Positions 1-9,560 of a stretch of DNA of 9,560 nt are shown piece by piece. The stretch lies in IMG/VR virus record IMGVR_UViG_2529292985_000013, positions 1-9,560 of that record. One strand, written 5' to 3'. The position numbers and the translations under genes were made by a program. Below the pieces are notes generated by a model. It was given only the letters and a program-made list of their open reading frames with translations, did not search any database and was not told the origin of the DNA. This DNA comes from a virus (lineage: Duplodnaviria > Heunggongvirae > Uroviricota > Caudoviricetes). Positions within the stretch are counted from its first letter, which is position 1. Every line of letters starts with the position of its first letter.

Positions 1-2
1 TA

Positions 3-344
3 TTAGCCTGGGCGCTGGTGGAGCTGGTAAAGCGTCTGCCATATATCATTGAGTTGAACACCGGGCATGAAACTATCGTTATAGCCCATGCCGACTATCC
101 AGGTGGAGAGTACCAGTTCGGTAAGGATGTGTCGCTTTTTGATGTTGTCTGGTCGCGCAGTCGCGTCGGTGATTCGATAGATGGCATTGGTGGAGAAATC
201 ACAGGCGCAGATCGCTTTATCTTTGGGCACACACCGGTACGAAGACCAAAAGCATACTGGAATCAGCACTACATAGACACGGGCGCGGTTTTTTGCGGAA
301 ATCTGACGCTAATGCAGGTGAAGGGAGGGCAGCTTAAAGTCTGA
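3..344 (+). CDS. Ser/Thr protein phosphatase (PPP / calcineurin-like metallophosphatase), C-terminal part; 5' end lies upstream of the window
   Basis: Frame is open from the window edge to the stop at 342-344. Translation contains C-terminal metallophosphatase motifs (FIFGHTPV, YIDTGAVFCGNL) typical of lambda-type PPP phosphatases. P1 encodes such a phosphatase (ppp), but identity was not verified. Confidence 0.8.
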   Translation, partial: LAWALVELVKRLPYIIELNTGHETIVIAHADYPGGEYQFGKDVSLFDVVWSRSRVGDSIDGIGGEITGADRFIFGHTPVRRPKAYWNQHYIDTGAVFCGNLTLMQVKGGQLKV

Positions 345-369
345 TCAAATCATTTACGCACTCAAAATG

Positions 370-399
370 TGTTAGAACATTGATTTTAGTTTTCTAACA
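370..399. promoter_or_regulatory. Palindrome TGTTAGAA-N14-TTCTAACA in the ppp / next-gene intergenic region, overlapping -35-like TTGATT (380-385)
   Basis: Perfect 8-bp inverted arms at 370-377 and 392-399 read directly from the sequence. An 8-bp inverted repeat with a short spacer is expected about 3 times by chance in 9.5 kb, so only its position in a promoter-like AT-rich spacer supports an operator role. Confidence 0.25.
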
Positions 400-441
400 T
401 ATTATTTTACCGCTCGGAACAAAACAGAGTCGGTATACATT

Positions 442-1437
442 ATGAGTGCAATAATCACACCTCATTTCGTAAACGGAGCTGGTGTGGCTGTCTTTCCGGT
501 AGACAAGCCCACCAGCAACTACATTGGCGCAGGTCGCCGTTTCATTATCTCTCCACTTCCGCGCGAACAGGCTGAAAACACGCCAGATGGCGTAGTGGAT
601 CTGAACTATTCGCTGGTTGCCAACCAGTCTCTGAAAGCATTTTTTCAAAGCGAGCGCGTATTTAACGCATTAGGCGGTGAAGATTCGCTTGTTCATTGGG
701 TAAGTTCCAATATCCACGATTGCCAGGCGCACGATAAGCGCGATTGCAGCCACCAGCTAACCACTCATTTCTATAACGGCTCTGCCGTTCGCCTGTGCTG
801 GAAGCATGATGCGGAATACATGATGAAGGGGTACAGCAAGCTGGACGACCAGTTATCCCTGAATCGTGCCAACTGGGTTATGAACTGGGCTGCGAGCGAG
901 TTAAAACTACCGCCAGAACGCGATCTGAGTATGGTTGAACTCACTTTTTGGGCCATTCGCCGGAATCTGAAAGATGAGCTGCCAGATGAAGCCGGTCGCA
1001 TTGCATTTTGTCAGCCAAAAACTGAAATCCCTACCGGTACGCTGAAAGAATCAGATATCACCTGGGAGCACAGTACCCGCGAGCTGGTGGACATAACCGC
1101 AGAGCAGATCGTCAACCTGTCTGTAGATGAGGATTCCGGCCTGCTTTATATGCGCCGACCAAAAGCGGTCCTCGGTAAAAGCCCGGCTTATCTCCGGTTT
1201 GTGGTGTCTCGCCCGTGTGTAGGCTGCGGCGGCAAGGTTAATCACCCATTCATGTACCGCGCTCGCTCGTTAAACGAACACGACCGCTGGGCTGTTCCTC
1301 TTTGCGATGACTGCGCCAGAAGCGCAGAAAACGATGTCCGGGCATGGGAAAAAGCACATGGCATCCGCCTTTACGTAGCCGCTAACCAGCTTTTCGACTT
1401 CGCCATTGAGCGCGGAGTGATCACGTTCAATAACTGA
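442..1437 (+). CDS. Hypothetical phage protein, 331 aa, with C-terminal Cys/His-rich HNH-like zinc-finger motif
   Basis: ATG start, long uninterrupted ORF. C-terminal segment CVGCGG..NHP..NEHD..CDDC has two CxxC pairs flanking His/Asn residues as in HNH-type nuclease folds. Possible DUF968-like prophage protein (recalled, unverified). Confidence 0.75.
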   Translation: MSAIITPHFVNGAGVAVFPVDKPTSNYIGAGRRFIISPLPREQAENTPDGVVDLNYSLVANQSLKAFFQSERVFNALGGEDSLVHWVSSNIHDCQAHDKRDCSHQLTTHFYNGSAVRLCWKHDAEYMMKGYSKLDDQLSLNRANWVMNWAASELKLPPERDLSMVELTFWAIRRNLKDELPDEAGRIAFCQPKTEIPTGTLKESDITWEHSTRELVDITAEQIVNLSVDEDSGLLYMRRPKAVLGKSPAYLRFVVSRPCVGCGGKVNHPFMYRARSLNEHDRWAVPLCDDCARSAENDVRAWEKAHGIRLYVAANQLFDFAIERGVITFNN

Positions 1438-1450
1438 TGGAAACAACGCA

Positions 1451-1750
1451 ATGAGTCAAGGTAACGGTGACGGAGCTGCAAAGTGCAGAATCTCCACTTG
1501 TTTGATTAATGACAGAAAAATAGAACCGTGTGCGGCGCTGGCACAATCTCTGGAGCAGGATGCTGAATACACGACGCGAAAAGGTCTGCTGAAATACAAA
1601 ATCTATAACCATGAATTAATTCATTCACAAGAACTGATCATGCTTCGGTCAGGCGAGTTTTCTAAATCGCCGATTCGGGTTTCATTTTGCCCGTTCTGTG
1701 GTGAAAGTCTGAAAACGTGGAAAGCGGAGGCAACCAGTGAGCAAGATTGA
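1451..1750 (+). CDS. Small hypothetical protein, 99 aa, possible zinc-ribbon (C-x5-C near N-term, CPFC near C-term)
   Basis: ATG-initiated ORF 13 nt after the upstream stop. Its 3' end overlaps the next gene's GTG start by 14 nt (coupling). Confidence 0.55.
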   Translation: MSQGNGDGAAKCRISTCLINDRKIEPCAALAQSLEQDAEYTTRKGLLKYKIYNHELIHSQELIMLRSGEFSKSPIRVSFCPFCGESLKTWKAEATSEQD

Positions 1751-2384
1751 TTATCAAAAGCTTCGTGAAATCGCTGAAAAAACAAAAATTGCTGGTGAAG
1801 CACCTGTAATGCCTTTCGATCAGCGAATTAATGCGCTTAACGATTTTATGAAGCACTTTTCGCCAGATATCGCGCTGGCATTGTTGGATGAACGGGAAAG
1901 AAACCTGCAATACATCAAAAGCCGCGATCAGGAGAACGAGGATATTGCGCTAACGGTAGGGAAGCTGCGTGTTGAGCTGGAAGGCAAAGACAGCAAAATA
2001 GCCAATCTTACCGCCGAACGCGATGCTCTTCGTGAAGGTGAGATGGGCGACGCTAGGCATAGCAACACACGGGCCGCAGCTGATATCTACTTCCAACTGG
2101 TCGAGGAGTGCGAAATTCCTGCTGGCGGATCTCTGGTCGAGTACGTTGACGATATGCGCGAGAAGCTGGAAGCCGCAGAGAAGCGCATAGCAGAGTTAGA
2201 AAGTGATTCTCAGGCACAAAAGTTAGTTGAAGCAATCATTGTTGCGATAGAAAACGAACAGGAACGTCTTTTTGATGAAGATTACCTAATGGATTCGAAA
2301 GAATGCATTGACGTAATTCGTGAAGAAGTAAAGCGATGGAATGATTCCCGCACCGCTGGCATTCGCATCAAAGGAGGTGAGTAA
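1737..2384 (+). CDS. Hypothetical charged, coiled-coil-like phage protein, 215 aa
   Basis: GTG start overlapping the upstream ORF. Highly charged E/K/R/L-rich sequence with heptad-like stretches. Stop TAA 2382-2384 overlaps the ATG of the next small ORF. Confidence 0.7.
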   Translation: MSKIDYQKLREIAEKTKIAGEAPVMPFDQRINALNDFMKHFSPDIALALLDERERNLQYIKSRDQENEDIALTVGKLRVELEGKDSKIANLTAERDALREGEMGDARHSNTRAAADIYFQLVEECEIPAGGSLVEYVDDMREKLEAAEKRIAELESDSQAQKLVEAIIVAIENEQERLFDEDYLMDSKECIDVIREEVKRWNDSRTAGIRIKGGE

Positions 2385-2560
2385 TGCGTGTGGCATGTAT
2401 CGGCTTGTTACCGTACCCGACTCGCTTTTGGGCTTCTGCGCTAATTGCAAAGCCACATGTCCTGATGGCTGACAACATCATCCCGGCACCAAAGCGCCGC
2501 CATACCGGTATTGCATCGGCACGACGAGCAGCAAAGAGACGCAGGAGAGCAAAACGATGA
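2384..2560 (+). CDS. Small basic protein, 58 aa, not in the supplied ORF track (below its apparent length cutoff)
   Basis: ATG at 2384 overlaps the upstream stop (TAATG). Strong SD GGAGG at 2373-2377, 6 nt upstream. Hand translation MRVACIGLLPYPTRFWASALIAKPHVLMADNIIPAPKRRHTGIASARRAAKRRRRAKR; stop TGA 2558-2560 overlaps the next ATG (ATGA). Confidence 0.4.
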   Translation: MRVACIGLLPYPTRFWASALIAKPHVLMADNIIPAPKRRHTGIASARRAAKRRRRAKR

Positions 2561-2745
2561 AAAACCGTAAAGCAAAGATTCTGTTAGTTCGTAGAAACGC
2601 TCCTGGCGTCTGGCAGTGGGTGAGACTCAGCAACCGCCGGATGGGGTTAATGAAACATTACGGGATGATGGATTGTGGTTTTTGCAAAAAGCCCAGCGCG
2701 GCGCAAAACCGCTGGAAAAACCACTTGCGTACTAAAGGAGAGTGA
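2557..2745 (+). CDS. Small basic hypothetical protein, 62 aa
   Basis: ATG overlapping the upstream stop (ATGA), SD-like GGAGA upstream. Stop is 1 nt before the next ATG. Confidence 0.45.
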   Translation: MKNRKAKILLVRRNAPGVWQWVRLSNRRMGLMKHYGMMDCGFCKKPSAAQNRWKNHLRTKGE

Positions 2746-2746
2746 T

Positions 2747-2956
2747 ATGGCTATCGCTGCAAGTTACACCATGCATCTCTATTGTGACTGCCGTCAGTGC
2801 ACGGAAGGTGTATATCCAGTGCCAGACTTCGGTGAGTATATAGGTACGTCATGGGCTGGCTGTGCAAAAGAGGCGCGCAAGGATGGCTGGCGAATAAGCA
2901 AAGACAAAACGCGTGCTTTTGCGCCCGGGCATAAAGTTTTGAGGGTTAACAAATGA
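2747..2956 (+). CDS. Small Cys-rich hypothetical protein, 69 aa (C-x-C-x2-C ... C), possible zinc-binding
   Basis: ATG at 2747 preceded by strong SD AAGGAG (2735-2740). The longer track ORF from 2675 lacks an RBS, so the internal start is preferred. Stop overlaps the next ATG (ATGA). Confidence 0.55.
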   Translation: MAIAASYTMHLYCDCRQCTEGVYPVPDFGEYIGTSWAGCAKEARKDGWRISKDKTRAFAPGHKVLRVNK

Positions 2957-3783
2957 CCACTATAACCAAAGAGCGACTACTGACAATCAAGCAGTGGCGC
3001 GAAACATACGGACCTGGTAGCAACGTTGTACTGCCAGCAGAAGAAGCGGAAGAACTGGCGCGGATTGCGCTGACATCGCTGGAAGCAGAGCCTATTGGTG
3101 AAGTTTCAGAGAAGCAACATGGCCTTGTTATGGATGGGACGGTAGACCTTGGCGGGAAATCAACTTATCGCATCATTAAGGGAGAAAAAGCGATGAAGTT
3201 GTTGCCGTTGGGGACGAAGTTTTATACCGCACCGCCAGCGCCGATAACGCCGGAGGCCATTGAAAACGCAATTGAATACATCCGCAGTATCGCTTTTCAC
3301 ATCGATGAAGACGATTACCACGGCAAACATATTGCGTATTTCATGCGACAAGCATTGGCCTGGCTGGAAGGGCATTCATGCAGCGACGACAGACAGGGTA
3401 AAGCCGAGAATCAACCAGTACGCGGCAACCAGACTGCCGAATCCAATCGCGGTAATGAGTGGACCGGCAATCCTGATATTGATAACGCAATCATCATGCT
3501 CGACCGCATAGATACGCTGGAAAATTGCGATGATGACCGTATTGAGGCTGTTAAGGCCGTTTTGCGTAGACTGGCTGGCAACCATCCGGATTTTCCGGAT
3601 AGTTCCCAACAATCGCCCAAGAAAAGCGTAAAAACCACTCTGGAAAGAGGCTATCTTGAGGCCGCATTAAAGATTAAGCCGGGCCATACGCTAGGCGTCA
3701 TTGATGCCATGTTGGTTCATGAAATGGCGAAGGCTTTATTGCCGCTGGTGGCTGATAAAATTCCGAATAAGGCCGATATCTGA
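2953..3783 (+). CDS. Hypothetical phage protein, 276 aa
   Basis: ATG start coupled to the upstream gene; long ORF with protein-like composition. Followed immediately by a strong intrinsic terminator. Confidence 0.7.
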   Translation: MTTITKERLLTIKQWRETYGPGSNVVLPAEEAEELARIALTSLEAEPIGEVSEKQHGLVMDGTVDLGGKSTYRIIKGEKAMKLLPLGTKFYTAPPAPITPEAIENAIEYIRSIAFHIDEDDYHGKHIAYFMRQALAWLEGHSCSDDRQGKAENQPVRGNQTAESNRGNEWTGNPDIDNAIIMLDRIDTLENCDDDRIEAVKAVLRRLAGNHPDFPDSSQQSPKKSVKTTLERGYLEAALKIKPGHTLGVIDAMLVHEMAKALLPLVADKIPNKADI

Positions 3784-3793
3784 TCACCATGCT

Positions 3794-3824
3794 AAAATCC
3801 CCTCAATTCACAGAGGGGATTTTT
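3794..3824 (+). terminator. Rho-independent terminator
   Basis: Perfect 11-bp stem AAAATCCCCTC (3794-3804) / GAGGGGATTTT (3813-3823), 8-nt loop, T-run to 3824. Lies 11 nt after the stop of the 276-aa gene. The stem's 3' arm doubles as the SD for the lipoprotein gene. Confidence 0.8.
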
Positions 3825-3828
3825 GTAT

Positions 3829-4095
3829 ATGTTGCATAGAGTTTTATGGAAAAGCGTTATTGTCGGCGCGATCTTGGCTATGTCTGGGTGTGCAATGGTG
3901 CAATACAACGACGGTGAAAAGGTAAGCATCCAGTCAGATGGCTGGTATGGGCTGGATAGTCTGCAAAAAACCGCAGATAAAGCCTGTCAGCAATATGGGA
4001 AGTCTAAAGCCGTATATCAGCATAGCGCGAACGCTAATCCCCATCTCGCGCCCGGTACGGGCGTTCAGAACACCATTTGGAAATGCGAACCATAA
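3829..4095 (+). CDS. Small secreted lipoprotein, 88-aa precursor
   Basis: ATG at 3829 (track ORF begins at an upstream TTG) with SD GAGGGGA 8 nt upstream. N-terminus MLHRVLWKSVIVGAILAMSGC has a positive n-region, hydrophobic core and lipobox-like LAMSG-C (signal peptidase II site). Mature part has 3 further Cys. Confidence 0.7.
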   Translation: MLHRVLWKSVIVGAILAMSGCAMVQYNDGEKVSIQSDGWYGLDSLQKTADKACQQYGKSKAVYQHSANANPHLAPGTGVQNTIWKCEP

Positions 4096-4134
4096 TGCTG
4101 GTGGCATCTTTGTTACAAAGAGGAACACCTGCTC

Positions 4135-4485
4135 TCAATGCAGGGGATGAGATTTAACGAAATCGATCACCCTATCCTGAACTTCAGAAAGAAGGTCTTT
4201 TTCATGCGCCAGGACGTCAGGATATTGACGTTCTGGCCTTACCAGATGCCGGAGCTTCCCATTAAGCAGAATGGCCTCAGAAAACACTTTTACGCTGTGC
4301 TTTATCCCCTCTGTTTCACTTTTCAGCGTCAAAATAAAGCGCAATTGCTTATTAGCCTGATTCGGATTCAATACACGAATTTGCAGTTCGTCTATGCTGT
4401 TTCGCAATGGGATTGATGCCACCACACTGGTGCTGTCTCTGATTGTCTGAATTGAACGGCTAACATTGAGAACGTTATTGTGCAT
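4135..4485 (-). CDS. Hypothetical protein, 116 aa, opposite strand to the surrounding gene block
   Basis: ATG-initiated ORF with purine-rich first codon positions. The overlapping + strand ORF (4138..4416) translates to an F/Y/Q-rich shadow-like sequence. Weak RBS (AGG only 3 nt from ATG) and rare codons (AGA, AGG, ATA, CGA) keep confidence low. Confidence 0.4.
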   Translation of the reverse strand: MHNNVLNVSRSIQTIRDSTSVVASIPLRNSIDELQIRVLNPNQANKQLRFILTLKSETEGIKHSVKVFSEAILLNGKLRHLVRPERQYPDVLAHEKDLLSEVQDRVIDFVKSHPLH

Positions 4486-4517
4486 GTGCCTGATCCACTA
4501 ACTCCTGGAGGTTTCTT

Positions 4518-4769
4518 GTGTCAGATCGAAATATAGCAGCTAAAAGCCAGGAAGAGCGAGACAAGGTGAACGTAGACCTTGCCGCCAGCGGCGTTGCTTA
4601 CAAAGAACGGCTGAATATACCTGTGATTGCAGAGCAGGTGGCCCGTGAGCAACCGGAAAACCTGCGCGCCTATTTCATGGAACGGCTACGGCACTACCGG
4701 CAGTTAAGCCTCCAGTTGCCAAAAGGGAGCGATCCGGTGTATCAGAACGAGGATGCACCAAAAAAATAA
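4518..4769 (+). CDS. hot: Homologue of DNA polymerase III theta subunit (HolE-like; P1 Hot-like)
   Basis: GTG start with SD GGAGG 7 nt upstream. The segment [43 protein letters not shown] closely parallels E. coli HolE ([43 protein letters not shown], recalled). Confidence 0.85.
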
Positions 4770-4854
4770 CGGCAAGATGGGGGAGAAATGTGATTAGCCC
4801 CCAGCGTTGCGCGCCTACAAATCCCGCTTTCACAAACTATGCCTTTTCAATGTA

Positions 4855-4874
4855 TACTGTATAAATAAACAGTA
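4855..4874 (+). promoter_or_regulatory. LexA (SOS) box overlapping a sigma70-like promoter for the humD-like gene
   Basis: TACTGTATAAATAAACAGTA is a perfect CTGT-N8-ACAG SOS box, nearly identical to the E. coli umuDC operator (recalled). It overlaps -10 TATACT (4853-4858); -35-like TTCACA at 4829-4834 (18-nt spacer); 18 nt upstream of the ATG at 4893. Confidence 0.85.
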
Positions 4875-4892
4875 TCATTGAGGTAAAACGCT

Positions 4893-5282
4893 ATGGGCTT
4901 CCCTTCTCCTGCGGCGGATTATGTTGAAAGCCGAATTTCTCTTGATCAGCAACTAATCAGGCATCCATCAGCAACCTACTTCATGCGGGCAGCTGATAGC
5001 CATCACCGTGAGGGAATATTGCAGGGTGCTTTGCTGGTGGTTGATTCCTCGCTTACTCCGGTTGATGGTTCTCTGCTTGTGTGCGCTATGGAGGGTGAAT
5101 ATCGCATAAAGAGATACAGGAAGTATCCGCGCCAGCACCTGGAGGATTTAAGCACCGGGAGGAAAGAGGCGTTACCAGTGGATGACGATGGATGCACGGG
5201 GAGTAATGCTGTTTTTGGTGTGATCACTCATGTCATCAATGATGTCCGAAGTGGGGAATTTGACGATTGTCCGGTGATTTAA
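4893..5282 (+). CDS. humD: UmuD' mimic: S24 peptidase-family UmuD homologue lacking the N-terminal arm (P1 HumD-like)
   Basis: Protein begins MGFPSPAADYVE, matching E. coli UmuD from Gly25 (first residue of processed UmuD'). An in-frame TAA at 4884-4886 precludes a longer N-terminus. Ser (ADSH) and Lys (RIKR) of the UmuD dyad are retained. Confidence 0.9.
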   Translation: MGFPSPAADYVESRISLDQQLIRHPSATYFMRAADSHHREGILQGALLVVDSSLTPVDGSLLVCAMEGEYRIKRYRKYPRQHLEDLSTGRKEALPVDDDGCTGSNAVFGVITHVINDVRSGEFDDCPVI

Positions 5283-5317
5283 GCTGCAAAGTGCTGGTGC
5301 TTTATACCTGTGAAGTT

Positions 5318-5346
5318 TATAGTTGTGTACACATAACGAGTACACG
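5318..5346 (+). promoter_or_regulatory. phd-doc promoter/operator region with tandem palindromic sites
   Basis: Perfect palindrome TGTGTACACA (5324-5333) and imperfect CGAGTACACG (5337-5346), 13 bp centre to centre, next to -10-like TATAGT (5318-5323), just upstream of the phd SD. Consistent with Phd/Doc autoregulation of P1 phd-doc (recalled). Confidence 0.6.
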
Positions 5347-5354
5347 AGGTGTTT

Positions 5355-5576
5355 ATGCAATCCATTAACTTCCGTACCGCGCGCGGCAACCTTTCTGAAG
5401 TGCTCAACAATGTTGAAGCCGGGGAAGAGGTTGAAATCACCCGCAGAGGCCGAGAGCCAGCAGTAATTGTCAGCAAGGCTACTTTTGAAGCCTACAAAAA
5501 AGCGGCGCTGGATGCTGAATTTGCATCCCTGTTTGACACCCTGGACTCCACCAACAAGGAACTGGTTAACCGATAA
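5355..5576 (+). CDS. phd: Phd/YefM-family antitoxin (prevent-host-death)
   Basis: ATG at 5355 with SD GAGG 6 nt upstream (track ORF starts at an upstream GTG). The 73-aa product [56 protein letters not shown]... matches P1 Phd as I recall it. Stop TAA overlaps the doc ATG (TAATG). Confidence 0.9.
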
Positions 5577-5956
5577 TGAGGCATATATCACCGGAAGAAC
5601 TTATTGCGCTTCATGATGCGAATATAAGCCGCTACGGCGGCCTGCCGGGAATGTCAGATCCGGGTAGGGCAGAGGCCATTATCGGGAGAGTTCAGGCCAG
5701 AGTTGCCTACGAAGAGATCACCGACCTTTTCGAAGTCTCCGCCACCTACCTGGTAGCTACGGCGAGAGGGCATATATTCAATGATGCCAATAAGCGTACC
5801 GCGCTAAACAGTGCGCTGCTATTTCTACGCCGTAACGGCATACAGGTATATGATTCTCCCGTGCTGGTGGAACTTGCGGTGGGGGCCGCAACTGGTGAAA
5901 TCCCCGTATCTTCAGTAGCGGAAAAACTACGTGAATTATTTGGTTCCAATATTTGA
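5576..5956 (+). CDS. doc: Doc toxin (Fic-fold kinase, death-on-curing)
   Basis: 126 aa coupled to phd. Contains the Doc-type Fic motif [11 protein letters not shown] (HxFx[DN][AG]NKR). Length and sequence match P1 Doc as recalled. Confidence 0.9.
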
Positions 5957-5960
5957 AAAG

Positions 5961-5984
5961 AAGCCCGCTCAACCAGGCGGGCTT
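5961..5984. terminator. Hairpin between convergent transcription units (doc on +, leftward operon on -), probably bidirectional
   Basis: GC-rich 8-bp stem AAGCCCGC (5961-5968) / GCGGGCTT (5977-5984), 8-nt loop. On the - strand it is followed by CTTTTC (better U-tract); on the + strand a T-run appears only further downstream. Confidence 0.55.
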
Positions 5985-6039
5985 CCTACTATCACTCAAT
6001 GATTTTTTCTGCTGTCAGCCAGCTAATTCGGTGATGTTT

Positions 6040-6840
6040 TTAGGCGTCAGCATCCTCCGCTACCTCTGCTTCAACATCAGCCACGGCTTCATCGGACGGT
6101 TCTTCTTTGGCCTGCTCTGCAATCGCCGCACGGCATTTGGCCCTTGCTGTGGCGATTGCTTCAGCACGCACATCATCAGGAATCATTGACGTGATATACA
6201 TATCCAGTTCTTCGGCGCGGAACACTGTTTGGTCCAGATATTCGCGTAGCATCCAGGTAAATTCGAAATCACACGCGATAATCTCTGCGCTACCTTCTGC
6301 ACCATTTGGGAAATGAATAAAAGCCTGTTTAGCCAAACCGATAACACGACATGCGGTTGCCAAAACAGCGGCAACCAGGTTTACATTTTCACACGCTACG
6401 GGCTGATTAACGCCGGAGATTACTCCATTTAACTGTCGGTTATATGGAAGGTAGTTTGAGATGCGTTCTACGCGCCATGTGCCAGTCAGGCTGCCATTCT
6501 TAAAGATAATTGGTGTAACGGATAGCCCAAGCTCGCGTATAAGTCGTTGCGCTATAGCAGGATCATTAAACATGTCTAATGCTACACATTCGAAAGACTG
6601 TGCAAGGGTAAACAGTTCTTCCAGAGAGTAGTCTTTGCCCCTGGCGGTGATGTAACGATGAACGCCGCTTTCTGCATCACTCCATATAGCTACGCCATGC
6701 TCTTCATTCAGCTCTTCATTAAAGCCGAGATACGTCATGATAGTACGTTCAATCGTGTCAAACGGCAGTGACATGTCGGCGTTAACAGCCACCAGCAGGC
6801 CATTACGCAAGCGGTATTGAATTGCTTTAGTATTTTCCAC
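6040..6840 (-). CDS. Hypothetical protein, 266 aa, with strongly acidic Ala/Glu/Asp-rich C-terminal tail
   Basis: Long ORF with GTG start at 6840, 6 nt after the upstream stop, SD-like GGAG 9 nt upstream. No recognisable catalytic motif (no P-loop, no HxH). C-terminal ~40 aa are low-complexity acidic (EEPSDEAVADVEAEVAEDADA). Confidence 0.7.
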   Translation of the reverse strand: MENTKAIQYRLRNGLLVAVNADMSLPFDTIERTIMTYLGFNEELNEEHGVAIWSDAESGVHRYITARGKDYSLEELFTLAQSFECVALDMFNDPAIAQRLIRELGLSVTPIIFKNGSLTGTWRVERISNYLPYNRQLNGVISGVNQPVACENVNLVAAVLATACRVIGLAKQAFIHFPNGAEGSAEIIACDFEFTWMLREYLDQTVFRAEELDMYITSMIPDDVRAEAIATARAKCRAAIAEQAKEEPSDEAVADVEAEVAEDADA

Positions 6841-6846
6841 GTTAAA

Positions 6847-7509
6847 TCACTCCACTACAAACCAGTCACATGCCAGCAAGTCGCCTACAGAAGGCAACCA
6901 CGGAACAACTACACCTTGTGCATTTTTTAAGGCGAAATAAGCACCATACGGAACGAGATCGCCGGGGAAATATCCCTTAATGGCTTCCATTCGTGCCGGG
7001 TACTGTCCTTCAGGAACCAGCCAGCAGAATTGGTTTTCGCCGTTCCACCCGCGCCGGGCAACTTTCTTGCCATCCTTCAGCCACATCAGCGCGTCAGAAA
7101 AGTCGGCTGCTTCAAGGTCGATTTCTTCTTGTAGAGTAGCGATACCGCCAGCAGAAATAGTTACGTCCCTGGCTGTAATGAATGTCACCCCATTGTGACC
7201 TTCAATGCTGAGCGATACCCCATTTTCGGAGGCGTCGTTAACCCGGCTATAGCATTTTTCAAATGCTTTCTCTGGCACATAGACCAGATAGCCATTTTCA
7301 GCAGTGACGAGATATCCTCCTATTTGCGGTCGGAATTTTTCCAAGAACACACCATCAACACGAAGCGTCATTCCTTTTGGCTCAACGACTTCGATACTGC
7401 CAAAAATGGGCGCATAAGCTTTGCCGACAATAACAATATCTTTGATTTTCGATGCCCGAATGATGCTGTGGCATTTGTATTTGGGGAACACCTGAAAAGT
7501 GCTGACCAT
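6847..7509 (-). CDS. Two-domain protein, 220 aa: N-terminal ~135-aa domain of unknown function fused to a C-terminal DUF2829/Tad2-like domain
   Basis: ATG with SD AGGAAGG upstream. The C-terminal ~85 aa (FSDALMWLKDGKKVARRGWNGENQFCWLVPEG...VVVPWLPSVGDLLACDWFVVE) fit my recollection of the DUF2829 pattern (ALxxLKxGKKVxRxGWNG ... WxPSxxDLLAxDW), the family of Thoeris anti-defence Tad2. Confidence 0.75.
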   Translation of the reverse strand: MVSTFQVFPKYKCHSIIRASKIKDIVIVGKAYAPIFGSIEVVEPKGMTLRVDGVFLEKFRPQIGGYLVTAENGYLVYVPEKAFEKCYSRVNDASENGVSLSIEGHNGVTFITARDVTISAGGIATLQEEIDLEAADFSDALMWLKDGKKVARRGWNGENQFCWLVPEGQYPARMEAIKGYFPGDLVPYGAYFALKNAQGVVVPWLPSVGDLLACDWFVVE

Positions 7510-7523
7510 AATCCTTCCTCTAC

Positions 7524-8018
7524 TTAAAACTTTGCGTACTGAAGCGGTGTACGCTTGATTTCAACGCGGTCTTCCGATGTGCTACCAAAGCCACCAGCGC
7601 CTCGCTCTGTTTCATCGAGTTCATCAACTTCTACCAGCGATACCGGTTCAACACGCTCAAAAATGCCTTGCATGACCGCCATTCCTGGCTTGAGGCAAAC
7701 GCCTTCACCACCGGGATCTGTAATCAGTTTTGCCATGATTTCACCGCGATAATCGGAGTCGATAATTCCTACGCAGTTAGCCAGGCGAGTATGTTTTTTG
7801 CAGCCCAATCCGGAACGCGGATAGAGTTTCAGACACCAGCCGGGCGGGATCTCCATAGCCAGTCCGGTGTACACCCACCAGCTTGAGGAAATTGCACCAT
7901 TGCTATCGACACATGGTTTTATTTCAACAGCCTCAAAATCCATCGCCGCCGATCCGGAGGTGGCATAAGCTGGAAGTTTTGCTGCCGGATGTAGGCGTTT
8001 CACTTTTACGTAAATCAT
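7524..8018 (-). CDS. dut: Trimeric dUTPase homologue (deoxyuridine triphosphatase) with divergent motif IV and short C-terminal extension
   Basis: ATG overlaps the upstream stop (ATGA). Motifs: I PAYATSGSAAMDF, II PRSGL, III GIIDSDYRGE, V ERGAGGFGSTS. Motif IV reads GMAVMQ where E. coli Dut has GERIAQ (Arg replaced). About 15 extra residues follow motif V. Confidence 0.85.
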   Translation of the reverse strand: MIYVKVKRLHPAAKLPAYATSGSAAMDFEAVEIKPCVDSNGAISSSWWVYTGLAMEIPPGWCLKLYPRSGLGCKKHTRLANCVGIIDSDYRGEIMAKLITDPGGEGVCLKPGMAVMQGIFERVEPVSLVEVDELDETERGAGGFGSTSEDRVEIKRTPLQYAKF

Positions 8019-8491
8019 TGTTTTTTAGCTCTCTGCGTGAAGGTGTAAACCCGACGTTTGATATGTGGAACGGTAGGAACAGGAATACAGGAACTTTCAA
8101 TAACTCCTTGCTCCTCCAGCGATCGCACCGCCCGCAAGAACTGCGACGTGTCGCCGCCAAACTGGCGGGCATAGGTGCTGCCGTTATGAAGTATTTGAGC
8201 TATTACCCGAGCTTTTGTCTGGCTGTCACGATATGCGAATAGCCGCACGGCCTCTTCTGGCGCAATCGATAACTGATAGCCTTTACCGGCACGGTGTCGA
8301 ATGAATCCATGCGCCAGTAGGTTTTTGAGTTCGTTACGAGTGCGAACAGATCCGTAATCCAGGAAGTGTGGATTGATAACGACTGGCTTAAACCATTCCG
8401 TAGGTGCTTTAGCTAATAGAGCTAACAGCTTCCCGGACAATCCTGGATAGGAAGACGGGTAACAATTCAGAGATGGGTAATAAGTTTTCAC
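8015..8491 (-). CDS. Hypothetical protein, 158 aa, possible winged-helix DNA-binding segments; no internal Met
   Basis: GTG start overlapping the upstream stop (GTGA), preceded by AGGGGG. The protein has no internal Met, so a non-ATG start is obligatory. Segments LLALLAKAPTEW...RTRNELKNLLAHGFIRH and STYARQFGGDTSQFLRAVRSLEEQGVIES look like HTH/winged-helix recognition regions (inference). Confidence 0.6.
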   Translation of the reverse strand: MKTYYPSLNCYPSSYPGLSGKLLALLAKAPTEWFKPVVINPHFLDYGSVRTRNELKNLLAHGFIRHRAGKGYQLSIAPEEAVRLFAYRDSQTKARVIAQILHNGSTYARQFGGDTSQFLRAVRSLEEQGVIESSCIPVPTVPHIKRRVYTFTQRAKKQ

Positions 8492-8844
8492 CGACGCCCC
8501 CTTGCCGGATATCGACCTGCATTAGTATCCGGTGCAATAAAGCCGGTAGTGGGGCGAGTGAAAGCGAGATTAATCTTCTCGACCATAGTGCGATAATTTT
8601 CCTGATAGTGGGCCAGGAGTTTTTCGGCGGCAATGATGGTTACTTTCCGGACGTAGCTTTCTGCTTCCTCCAGATTTCGCCAGTTTTTTTCGAGGGTAAA
8701 CACAGGGACGGCCTCAAGCCCGGTCATGATGCCGAATACAACGACAGCATGACTGTTCTTAACACCAGCGGCGAAGGTTACGGTGTAACCATCCACCGTG
8801 AAGCGTCTTGATTCCGTGATTTGACTCTGCAAAGCACCCTCCAA
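8488..8844 (-). CDS. Small hypothetical protein, ~114-118 aa, first gene of the leftward operon
   Basis: Frame is open only from TTG at 8844 (in-frame stop 6 codons further upstream); no ATG is available. A second TTG at 8832 sits 5 nt after a GGAGGG SD-like sequence and may be the true start. Function unknown. Confidence 0.5.
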   Translation of the reverse strand: MEGALQSQITESRRFTVDGYTVTFAAGVKNSHAVVVFGIMTGLEAVPVFTLEKNWRNLEEAESYVRKVTIIAAEKLLAHYQENYRTMVEKINLAFTRPTTGFIAPDTNAGRYPARGRR

Positions 8845-8905
8845 AATAGGCGAGGGTACTTTACAGCAAAGATATCAATCTAAAAAGATGTGTTAGAAAT
8901 TTAAT

Positions 8906-9560
8906 TTACGAATCCATCAAGCGGCTATTAGCCCCCACAGACACACCGCCACGGCGCAGATACCGCATAAGTGTTTCCGGTTTCTTCCAGGTTCCTTCCT
9001 GCATGATCTCCACCATAGACACCTGCTTTTCAGCCATATCGATAGCGGCCCCGACACGAGCACTATGCCCGGTCCACGTCCGGTATCTCCCTTTGTTTGG
9101 CGCGGCATCCCTTTTATTCAGCAACACCCAGGCGTCGCTGAATATTTTCTCCATTGCAGGTGCAGTAAGGGGCGTTGTCGTAATCCTGGCCTTATTGCTA
9201 CGGTGTATCGGCGGGAACAGCACCGCGTCAGGATGTTCACGAAGCCCGGAAACATCCAGCCAGTCATTCAGCACAGCAGTAGTGCGACGGGAAAGCACCT
9301 TATCAAGCCCGGCGGCGGTCGTTATTGTCTTCGTGTGTGAAATATGTAGCGTGACAGTGTCACCTGTTTGGTCCAGATCTCCTACACGAATACGCGAGAT
9401 TTCCGACATACGCATCAGCGTATTGTATGCAACAAAGAGAAAAGCCCGGTTGCGCTGGTCCACCAGCCGTTCTGACCTGGACAGCAGGACGTCGAGCAGT
9501 TTCAGGTCGTCCCACCGCAACGGTATAGCCTGGCCTGTTCGCTCGCCTTTTTCCGTTGCC
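8906..9560 (-). CDS. Cre-family tyrosine recombinase, C-terminal catalytic part; 5' end beyond the window
   Basis: Frame stays open to the window edge upstream of the track's TTG at 9520. Translation aligns with P1 Cre (recalled) over the catalytic domain: RAFLFVAYNTLMRMSEISRIRV vs RNLAFLGIAYNTLLRIAEIARIRV, GHSARVGAA (His/Arg box), and conserved Trp/Tyr (TWKKPETLMRYLR). Roughly 45-50 percent identity by eye, so it is not P1 Cre itself. Confidence 0.85.
   Translation of the reverse strand, partial: ATEKGERTGQAIPLRWDDLKLLDVLLSRSERLVDQRNRAFLFVAYNTLMRMSEISRIRVGDLDQTGDTVTLHISHTKTITTAAGLDKVLSRRTTAVLNDWLDVSGLREHPDAVLFPPIHRSNKARITTTPLTAPAMEKIFSDAWVLLNKRDAAPNKGRYRTWTGHSARVGAAIDMAEKQVSMVEIMQEGTWKKPETLMRYLRRGGVSVGANSRLMDS

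Follow-up and report, generated by a model that had tools for sequence, protein, structure and literature searches.

The locus described here raises the question of whether a phage-type dUTPase that lacks a conserved arginine in motif IV and carries extra residues beyond motif V is still a working enzyme, or whether it has been diverted to other tasks. The window, i.e. the whole stretch of 9,560 nucleotides that was analysed, corresponds to positions 1 to 9,560 of the IMG/VR record IMGVR_UViG_2529292985_000013, assigned to the Caudoviricetes. An original prediction had proposed for this protein a role that was "regulatory or anti-defence rather than housekeeping". Sequence comparisons and a predicted structure led us to a different reading, namely that Dut is likely to be an active homotrimeric dUTPase with a somewhat altered gamma-phosphate binding, encoded by an accessory gene of D6-like P1-family phage-plasmids. 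The analyses reported below directly show to which family Dut belongs, which fold and motifs it has, that it is conserved throughout its lineage and under purifying selection, and how its operon is built. The coordinates of all features are collected in Table 1.

Table 1. Position of dut, of its motifs and of the neighbouring genes in the window.
Feature	Coordinates	Strand	Description
dut (phage D6 orf115)	7524..8018	minus	164 codons, 164 aa, trimeric-type dUTPase; ATG at 8018, TAA at 7524-7526, stop codon within span
Motif I, A24-A-M-D27	7938..7949	minus	alignments to solved dUTPases and homologues
Motif II, P67-R68-S69-G70	7809..7820	minus	phosphate-binding Arg/Ser; alignments
Motif III, G84-I-I-D87-S-D-Y90-R-G92	7743..7769	minus	catalytic Asp87, sugar-discriminating Tyr90; alignments
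Motif IV variant, G112-M-A114-V-M-Q117	7668..7685	minus	Ala114 codon GCG at 7677-7679; alignments
Motif V, R139-G-A-G-G-F144-G-S-T-S148	7575..7604	minus	P-loop-like arm, arginine finger, Phe lid
C-terminal tail, residues 149-164, EDRVEIKRTPLQYAKF	7527..7574	minus	16 residues beyond motif V
orf116 homologue	8015..8491	minus	158 aa, possibly winged-helix; TGA stop overlaps dut ATG (ATGA)
orf117 homologue	8488..8844	minus	114-118 aa; PHROG 1968; likely true start TTG at 8832, behind GGAGG
Tad2-like protein	6847..7509	minus	220 aa, C-terminal DUF2829; PF11195, E 2.1e-22, residues 136-219
isaA-like protein, last gene of operon	6040..6840	minus	266 aa; PHROG 2326; D6 orf113 "similar to P1 isaA"
Dre (Cre-like) tyrosine recombinase, 3' part	8906..9560	minus	runs off window; PF00589; D6 dre annotation

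The dut gene and its carrier element

The protein encoded by dut matched the Pfam family PF00692 (dUTPase; E 1.3e-13, 51.2 bits against a cut-off of 22), the NCBIfam equivalog NF001862 ("dUTP diphosphatase"; 118.2 bits against a cut-off of 103), TIGR00576 (score 116.6, cut-off 102.55) and PHROG 135 ("dUTPase"; E 1.5e-60), and a phmmer search of the PDB returned 62 solved dUTPase sequences with a best E value of 2e-24. These matches bear out the phage-type dUTPase originally predicted at this position. The AlphaFold2 model of Dut showed a pLDDT of 89 overall and of about 95 in the core, and its jelly-roll beta fold superposed on solved dUTPases; the top Foldseek matches were the enzymes from E. 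coli, Nocardia, H. pylori and M. tuberculosis, all of them trimeric (E about 1e-12, TM 0.76-0.9). A dCTP deaminase or a bifunctional dCTP deaminase-dUTPase was also considered and rejected, since the only NCBIfam models matched at E <= 0.01 were those for dUTP diphosphatase and the only Pfam family was PF00692.

Megablast alignment of the window with phage D6 (MF356679/NC_050154) returned 96.7% identity across 77% of the window, and 42 E. coli, Shigella and Salmonella plasmids of about 90 kb each covered at least 80% of it; judged from these alignments, the window belongs to the D6 lineage of P1-family phage-plasmids. The gene is already public: the 2004 record of the D6 immC region (AY753669, with Dre and the rox site) labels it "dut, probable dUTPase" and RefSeq uses the name dut. 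An identical Dut (100%) is encoded on NZ_CP150992.1 and CP056796.1. As the same protein occurs on other plasmids and the same motif IV throughout the lineage examined, the motif IV change and the tail are not a sequencing quirk.

Among 5426 complete E. coli genomes, 103 (about 2%) carried dut in one copy each, and in these 103 genomes the gene was always plasmid-borne (about 76-95 kb), never chromosomal, and annotated "dut" every time. About 126 PLSDB plasmids carried dut at 90% identity or above. The gene is widespread and as a rule intact; in a minority of D6-like plasmids it was truncated, frameshifted or, inside motif V, fused in-frame to the Tad2-like domain (P0004, P0005, P0016 and P0030). 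An Rfam scan of the whole window gave no match, and the base-composition profile of the window was unremarkable.

Catalytic residues and the missing arginine of motif IV

Motifs I, II, III and V, which the original prediction had described as recognisable, were all located by alignment with the residues listed in Table 1. The Asp of motif I was present in 116 of 120 homologues, the remaining four rows being gaps, the Arg and Ser of motif II in 118 and the Gln corresponding to Gln117 of motif IV in 117; this Gln was also invariant in alignment A3. The catalytic set (Asp27, Arg68, Ser69, Asp87, Tyr90, Gln117, Arg139 and Phe144) is complete in Dut. In trimeric dUTPases, chemical roles are assigned to the motif III Asp, which activates the attacking water, to the Arg and Ser of motif II, to the Gln of motif IV and to elements of motif V (PMC7948977, PMC6770826), the latter comprising a P-loop-like arm, an Arg finger, a Phe lid and a Gly-rich loop (PMC7948977). 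Three of the four residues that follow motif IV in Dut (F-E-R-V) would fit the "classical" three-subunit set described in the same paper.

The variant of motif IV was examined by HMMER alignment to four solved dUTPases, in which residues 112-117 (GMAVMQ) stood opposite GERIAQ of Aquifex (8y1q), GMRIAQ of Brucella and Rickettsia (3mbq and 7n56) and GDRIAQ of Helicobacter (8hrv). These alignments agree with the earlier hand alignment, according to which the conserved Arg had been replaced: Ala114 takes the place of the Arg and Met116 that of the following Ala, while Gln117 is retained. In the E. coli enzyme, we take the equivalents of Asp27, Asp87, Met113 and Ala114 to be Asp32, Asp90, Glu115 and Arg116 respectively, in a register that agrees with the 1dud match. 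On the same E. coli sequence, the spacing between motifs III and IV differs by a 1-residue indel only and holds no insertion, the extra segments of Dut lying after motif I and after motif V.

Trimer formation and activity are inferred, and so are the influence of Ala114 on the kinetics and the physiological role considered below. By analogy with known trimeric dUTPases, the three jelly-roll subunits would form three active sites at their interfaces, each built from motifs I, II and IV of one subunit, motif III of a second and the motif V arm of the third. Deoxyuridine would be selected by Tyr90 together with the motif III hairpin, the phosphate chain would be held by Ser69, Arg68 and Gln117, and the site would be closed by Arg139 and Phe144 of the arm; Asp87 would activate a water that attacks the alpha-phosphate of dUTP in line, yielding dUMP and pyrophosphate. 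For the element, the benefit might be a low dUTP level during plasmid and phage replication, with less uracil incorporation and less Ung-dependent breakage. The host already possesses an essential Dut. The benefit cannot be large, since phage P1 manages without dut and the copy is truncated, frameshifted or fused in a minority of D6-like plasmids.

The motif GMAV(M/I/V)Q was found in every related Dut, namely those of D6-like elements from E. coli and Salmonella, of Klebsiella variicola, of Raoultella ornithinolytica and of one 90-kb contig (65-100% identity), and the homologue on Pantoea eucalypti pEuc3 (50% identity) showed GMVIAQ. The codon for Ala114 varied among members (GCG, GCT and GCC), indicating that Ala has been kept through synonymous turnover. 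The loss of the Arg is an old and fixed trait of the lineage, shared by its members in E. coli, Klebsiella, Raoultella and Pantoea at 50-100% identity.

Outside the lineage, the Arg was present in 100 of the 120 best clusters at 90% identity. A HMMER scan of 1.84 billion representatives at 50% identity yielded the 137 single-domain nearest relatives of Dut, of which 123 had Arg or Lys at this position and 14 (10%) another residue (Ala in eight, Ser in two, Cys in two, Val and Pro in one each). In a rough neighbour-joining tree, the sequences devoid of Arg or Lys among the 137 representatives were spread over at least seven lineages, with motif V otherwise intact. Real and selected, the substitution is uncommon but has been acquired repeatedly. 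In M-PMV dUTPase the corresponding Arg is mostly disordered, makes water-mediated contacts only and "might not be essential" (PMC3905902). Since the curated equivalog accepts Dut, 10% of the relatives lack the Arg and this residue is peripheral in the M-PMV structures, we regard it as typical of the homotrimeric dUTPase family, not as defining it; it is the one family feature that Dut lacks.

A search of the literature returned no assay of a dUTPase devoid of the motif IV Arg and no direct mutagenesis test of that residue. As about 90% of the relatives conserve it, its loss probably costs something or needs some compensation. By eye, most of the 14 sequences devoid of Arg or Lys had a Lys or Arg among the four positions preceding motif IV, an inspection confined to this set. 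Compensation by this residue is not supported, as the same four positions contain a Lys or Arg in human and M. tuberculosis Dut too. The most likely effect of Ala114 would be a modest change in gamma-phosphate binding, either in Km or in arm closure.

Selection, the C-terminal tail and the operon

The dN/dS ratio of dut was 0.05-0.2 across the lineage, out to saturated dS. Within the core (residues 1-148), comparison with D6 returned 4 non-synonymous and 21 synonymous differences, i.e. a dN/dS of about 0.05. Such values place dut under purifying selection typical of an enzyme.

Beyond motif V, 16 residues were counted in Dut, in line with the figure of about 15 given originally, against 1-3 in the E. 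coli and human enzymes and in most relatives. Among the 147 representatives aligned at this position, a set that takes in tandem-domain proteins, 26% had 10 residues or more. The tail is limited to the E. coli/Salmonella sublineage of the D6-like members. The Duts of Klebsiella, Raoultella and contig L021 end at GFGST(S/T)(K) and have instead an insertion of 15-25 residues after motif I, and the Pantoea Dut ends in an unrelated extension, about 50 residues long, in which Thr, Ala, Glu and Ser abound. The tail is the least confidently modelled (pLDDT 45-65) and the fastest-evolving part of Dut, with 6 non-synonymous and 1 synonymous differences from D6 and 6 of 16 residues changed. Diversifying selection is not claimed from these numbers, as they are small and a recombination junction within and next to the gene explains them better. 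Length and pattern (E..-EIKR--LQY-K) were kept in all four alleles seen, so that the tail cannot be called functionless. We see in it a recent addition to the flexible arm that is under loose constraint and lies where two genes meet in a recombination-prone stretch.

Both peculiarities noticed at the outset are thus real, although the fractions of relatives that lack Arg or Lys or carry long tails make them less exceptional than had been assumed. One account of them is that Dut has kept the dUTPase fold but been crippled as a catalyst, acting as a binder or sensor of dUTP or another nucleotide and not as an enzyme. In its favour, the Arg or Lys that about 90% of relatives keep has been replaced and the acidic residue before it lost (GD/ER to GMA), and C-terminal extensions were commoner among the representatives devoid of Arg or Lys (9 of the 14, compared with 24 of the other 123; Fisher p = 8e-4, uncorrected for phylogeny). 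At the level of lineages, however, this association shrinks to about 5 of 9 in the rough tree, and we note it as a side observation. All the residues required for the chemistry are retained under strong purifying selection, whereas a binder would need neither the catalytic Asp87 nor the Arg finger nor a complete P-loop-like motif V, and the missing Arg is itself peripheral in the solved M-PMV complexes. We hold this account to be very unlikely.

The window allele of dut is a chimera. Nucleotides 1-231 are of the D6 type and nucleotides 276-495 (220 nt, tail included) of the type found in L009, with a crossover that maps to 7743-7788 and overlaps the DNA of the invariant motif III. The L009-type tract runs on into the 5' half of the gene downstream of dut. 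The orf116 homologue is about 99% D6-type, whereas the 3' third of dut is L009-type; the two alleles have been reassorted, which counts against a dedicated partnership between their products.

As originally proposed, dut sits in a cargo operon, here the accessory operon of a phage-plasmid. The order on the minus strand is that annotated in D6, with dre, orf117, orf116, orf115 ("dUTP diphosphatase"), the DUF2829 protein and the isaA-like gene, and the D6 annotation places pdcA, doc, phd and humD on the other strand. Conservation of the module extended to every one of the 21 further loci examined (D6 and L003-L021), in the order C1 repressor, recombination site, Cre-like recombinase, small ORF, orf116 homologue, dut, usually the Tad2-like gene, and isaA-like gene. 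In each dut-bearing locus, from E. coli to Pantoea, orf116 lay directly upstream of dut, its product showing 22-73% identity, with an overlap of 4 nt in the window (ATGA) and of 8-14 nt elsewhere; the ATGA overlap suggests that the two genes are probably translationally coupled. The Tad2-like gene starts 14 nt past the dut stop and has its own ribosome-binding site. Contig L020 holds orf116 followed directly by the Tad2-like gene, without dut, and in L003, L006 and L021 dut is present without the Tad2-like gene. The P1 C1-operator consensus (ATTGCTCTAATAAATTT, up to 3 mismatches) was absent throughout the window, sigma-70 consensus promoters were absent from 5900-9560, and the number of terminator-like sites did not exceed that in shuffled sequence.

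The 158-aa product of orf116 had been described as winged-helix-like. Its family is very small (8 protein clusters in a homologue search of a database of 5.8 billion proteins), and the AlphaFold model built on an 8-sequence alignment was poor (pLDDT 55), with a helix-helix-helix-strand-strand arrangement at residues 16-74 modelled at pLDDT 70-82. All the top Foldseek matches were wHTH regulators, in agreement with the description, but none was significant (E >= 0.05), so that sequence and model together give a weak hint of a winged helix.

These data bear on the possibility that Dut is a moonlighting signalling protein, in which the open active site of the trimer would bind the orf116 product or another repressor in competition with dUTP, the altered motif IV and the tail tuning this interaction. 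The constant adjacency and overlap of the two genes in spite of the low identity of orf116, and the weak wHTH signals from its product, would suit such a switch. There is also a precedent, as residues of motifs 3 and 4 of the 80-alpha Dut influence SaPI induction and Stl binds the open active site (PMC6770826), and complexes of M. tuberculosis dUTPase with Stl are among the solved structures (7pwx, 8p8o). However, the two genes may be neighbours simply because the module is inherited as a syntenic whole, and recombination reshuffles orf116 and dut alleles. Moreover, the locus that keeps orf116 without dut indicates that orf116 does not need Dut, the tail is missing from the Klebsiella, Raoultella and L021 members, an insertion between motifs III and IV is lacking, and the orf116 model is of low confidence. 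Taken together, very little probability can be given to this role. A more elaborate version, in which the Arg-less motif IV would mark a subclass of phage dUTPases whose weakened grip on the gamma-phosphate and extended arm had been co-opted for binding a partner, in P1-family phage-plasmids the translationally coupled orf116 product, appears extremely improbable. Dut and the repressor would then make up an enterobacterial counterpart of Dut-Stl, a switch responsive to dUTP and in control of the accessory/anti-defence operon next to Dre.

The operon also bears on a role in anti-defence, with Dut clearing dUTP from deaminase-type or other nucleotide-targeting host defences in partnership with the Tad2-like protein. 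The one positive hint is that the downstream neighbour contains a domain resembling Tad2 (Thoeris anti-defence 2; E 2e-22), a matter of context that says nothing direct on Dut itself; the module also adjoins the recombination site, in a part of the phage-plasmid whose accessory content varies. On the other hand, the Tad2-like gene and dut occur independently of each other, a PADLOC scan of Dut, orf116, orf117, the Tad2-like and isaA-like proteins and two other window ORFs gave no match, and, in the one published test that the literature search turned up, overexpression of Dut left the AvcID deaminase defence against T5 unaffected (PMC10511110). A literature search on the phage D6 dUTPase and on dUTPases as anti-defence factors or defence triggers returned nothing specific. 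We consider the anti-defence role very improbable; it would in any case still need ordinary dUTPase activity and hence overlaps with the reading of Dut as a working homotrimeric enzyme.

The proposal of a regulatory or anti-defence function in place of housekeeping is not supported, given intact catalytic residues, low dN/dS values and a tail that some members lack. Dut thus appears as an ordinary dUTPase with a minor motif variant, and nothing that we examined supports a regulatory or anti-defence role.

Significance and comparison with known systems

If Dut is simply active, as we think most likely, it would be a natural experiment for dUTPase enzymology, in which the motif IV Arg proves dispensable, a point left open by the M-PMV structural paper pending mutagenesis (PMC3905902). 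The natural Ala variant offers a ready means of learning what this Arg contributes. The survey of E. coli also documents a second, plasmid-borne dut in about 2% of complete genomes. Only if dut were a signalling partner of orf116 would the importance be wider, extending the Staphylococcus Dut-Stl paradigm to enterobacterial phage-plasmids.

One of the closest known systems is the Dut of phage D6 itself, which shares with the window protein the locus order dre-orf117-orf116-dut, the GMAVMQ motif, the 16-residue tail and 93.9% identity, and differs in that the window allele is a D6/L009 chimera with 6 of 16 tail residues changed. In the 2004 record, dut (P0007) diverges towards its 3' end in a frameshift-like manner and encodes 148 aa, unlike the 164 aa of the window.

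E. coli Dut and the other bacterial homotrimers (1dud, 1rn8 and 6hde; M. tuberculosis 1six; Aquifex 8y1q) have the same fold (TM 0.76-0.9), the five motifs in the same order, and the catalytic Asp, Ser/Arg, Gln, Arg finger and Phe lid in common with the window protein. The E. coli enzyme is about 37-43% identical to it and differs by having Arg116 and Glu115 where Ala114 and Met113 stand in the window Dut, which in addition carries 16 extra C-terminal residues and a short additional hairpin segment after motif I.

The Duts of the Staphylococcus phages phi11 and 80-alpha, which derepress SaPIs by binding Stl, are likewise phage-encoded and of the trimeric type, and their active site can bind an HTH repressor (PMC6770826). 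They belong to a different host clade and show marginal similarity to the window protein (4gv8, E 0.002), which is devoid of an insertion between motifs III and IV. We take this interval to be the site of the phage-specific insert (motif VI) of the Staphylococcus enzymes. With motif VI so placed, the comparison puts the window Dut outside the moonlighting subgroup of the Staphylococcus phages.

A further parallel is offered by metagenomic dUTPases that also lack the Arg (P0181, P0188, P0193 and P0244, with the motif xxA(I/V)AQ, and P0166, P0231 and P0236). They have Ala at the same position and an intact motif V, many of them with C-terminal extensions, but they are 45-52% identical to the window Dut and fall on separate branches of the rough neighbour-joining tree.

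Recombination and divergence of dut

The dUTPase gene (dut) of the window is a recombinant: its first 231 nt, at the 5' end, match the D6 type, and its last 220 nt, at the 3' end, the type found at another compared locus, L009. The crossover falls inside the gene, in the invariant DNA encoding motif III, and the L009-type tract runs on past the end of dut, reaching the 5' half of the adjoining Tad2-like gene. The 2004 record of the D6 immC region (AY753669) gives dut as 148 aa, and its 3' part diverges from the 2017 D6 genome, showing 76% identity over 87%. This divergence seems to be due to frameshifting sequence errors in the 2004 record.

The Duts of the Klebsiella and Raoultella elements and of an unassigned contig of about 90 kb (L021) have no C-terminal tail and contain 15-25 extra residues, inserted after motif I and ahead of the following strand. 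The Pantoea pEuc3 Dut carries a valine at the position of the motif IV arginine and ends with a tail of about 50 residues, rich in Thr, Ala, Glu and Ser. In the nearest dUTPase set, consisting of 137 single-domain representatives from a search of 1.84 billion representatives, at least 10 residues followed motif V in 9 of the 14 sequences lacking Arg/Lys in motif IV versus 24 of the 123 others (Fisher p = 8e-4, on sequence counts ignoring phylogeny). Evaluated by lineage, the association of Arg/Lys loss with a C-terminal extension comes down to about 5 of 9 lineages.

Loci and features compared
Feature	Locus	Coordinates	Strand	Remarks
Dre recombinase gene, 3' two-thirds	window	8906-9560	-
orf116	window	8015-8491	-
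Crossover in dut	window	7743-7788
L009-type tract	window	7260-7760
Tad2-like protein, 220 aa	window	6847-7509	-	adjoins dut downstream; PF11195, E 2e-22, residues 136-219
phd-doc addiction pair	window	5349-5956	+
humD (UmuD'-like)	window	4893-5282	+
hot homologue (DNA polymerase III theta subunit)	window	4518-4769	+
116-aa ORF (D6 orf106 counterpart)	window	4135-4485	-	lone minus-strand ORF amid plus-strand genes
dut, 2004 D6 record	L002	190-636
dut, Klebsiella or Raoultella	L003	6001-6498
dut, Klebsiella or Raoultella	L004	6001-6501
dut, Pantoea pEuc3	L006	5001-5597
dut, unassigned contig	L021	4407-4895
module segment lacking dut	L020	4001-4940

Loci lacking an intact dut or its Tad2-like neighbor

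One homologue of 241 aa (P0004), occurring on contigs up to 88.6 kb, is a natural in-frame Dut-Tad2 fusion whose junction lies inside motif V of Dut, between RGAGG and ITTQQEEIDL.... Frameshifted dut variants occur as well (set P0004, P0005, P0016, P0030); these cases show that a minority of D6-like plasmids carry an inactivated dut. On a JGI contig of 88 kb (L020), a recombinase gene and a 114-aa ORF precede the orf116 homologue, which is followed directly by a Tad2-like gene with no dut between them. L003, L006 and L021 possess dut and no Tad2-like gene. The module genes are individually dispensable.

Genes flanking dut

The dre, phd-doc and humD genes and the hot homologue form the kind of backbone that a P1-family element would be expected to carry. 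Pfam and PADLOC searches with the 116-aa ORF returned no matches. The orf116 family is very small (8 clusters in a homologue search of a 5.8-billion-protein database) and was located in a P1-like phage-plasmid at every locus examined. The protein has an invariant PHIKRR-Y motif close to its C-terminal end; by its sequence and a low-confidence model, it looks like one winged-helix unit, possibly two in tandem.

The PF11195 (Tad2-like/DUF2829) domain, the same family as the Thoeris anti-defence sponge, constitutes the C-terminal part of the Tad2-like protein, while the N-terminal 110 residues or so are variable between relatives. The phage D6 protein consists of 146 aa, with an N-terminal part that is shorter than and unrelated to that of the window's protein, and the N-terminus of the Klebsiella protein differs again from both.
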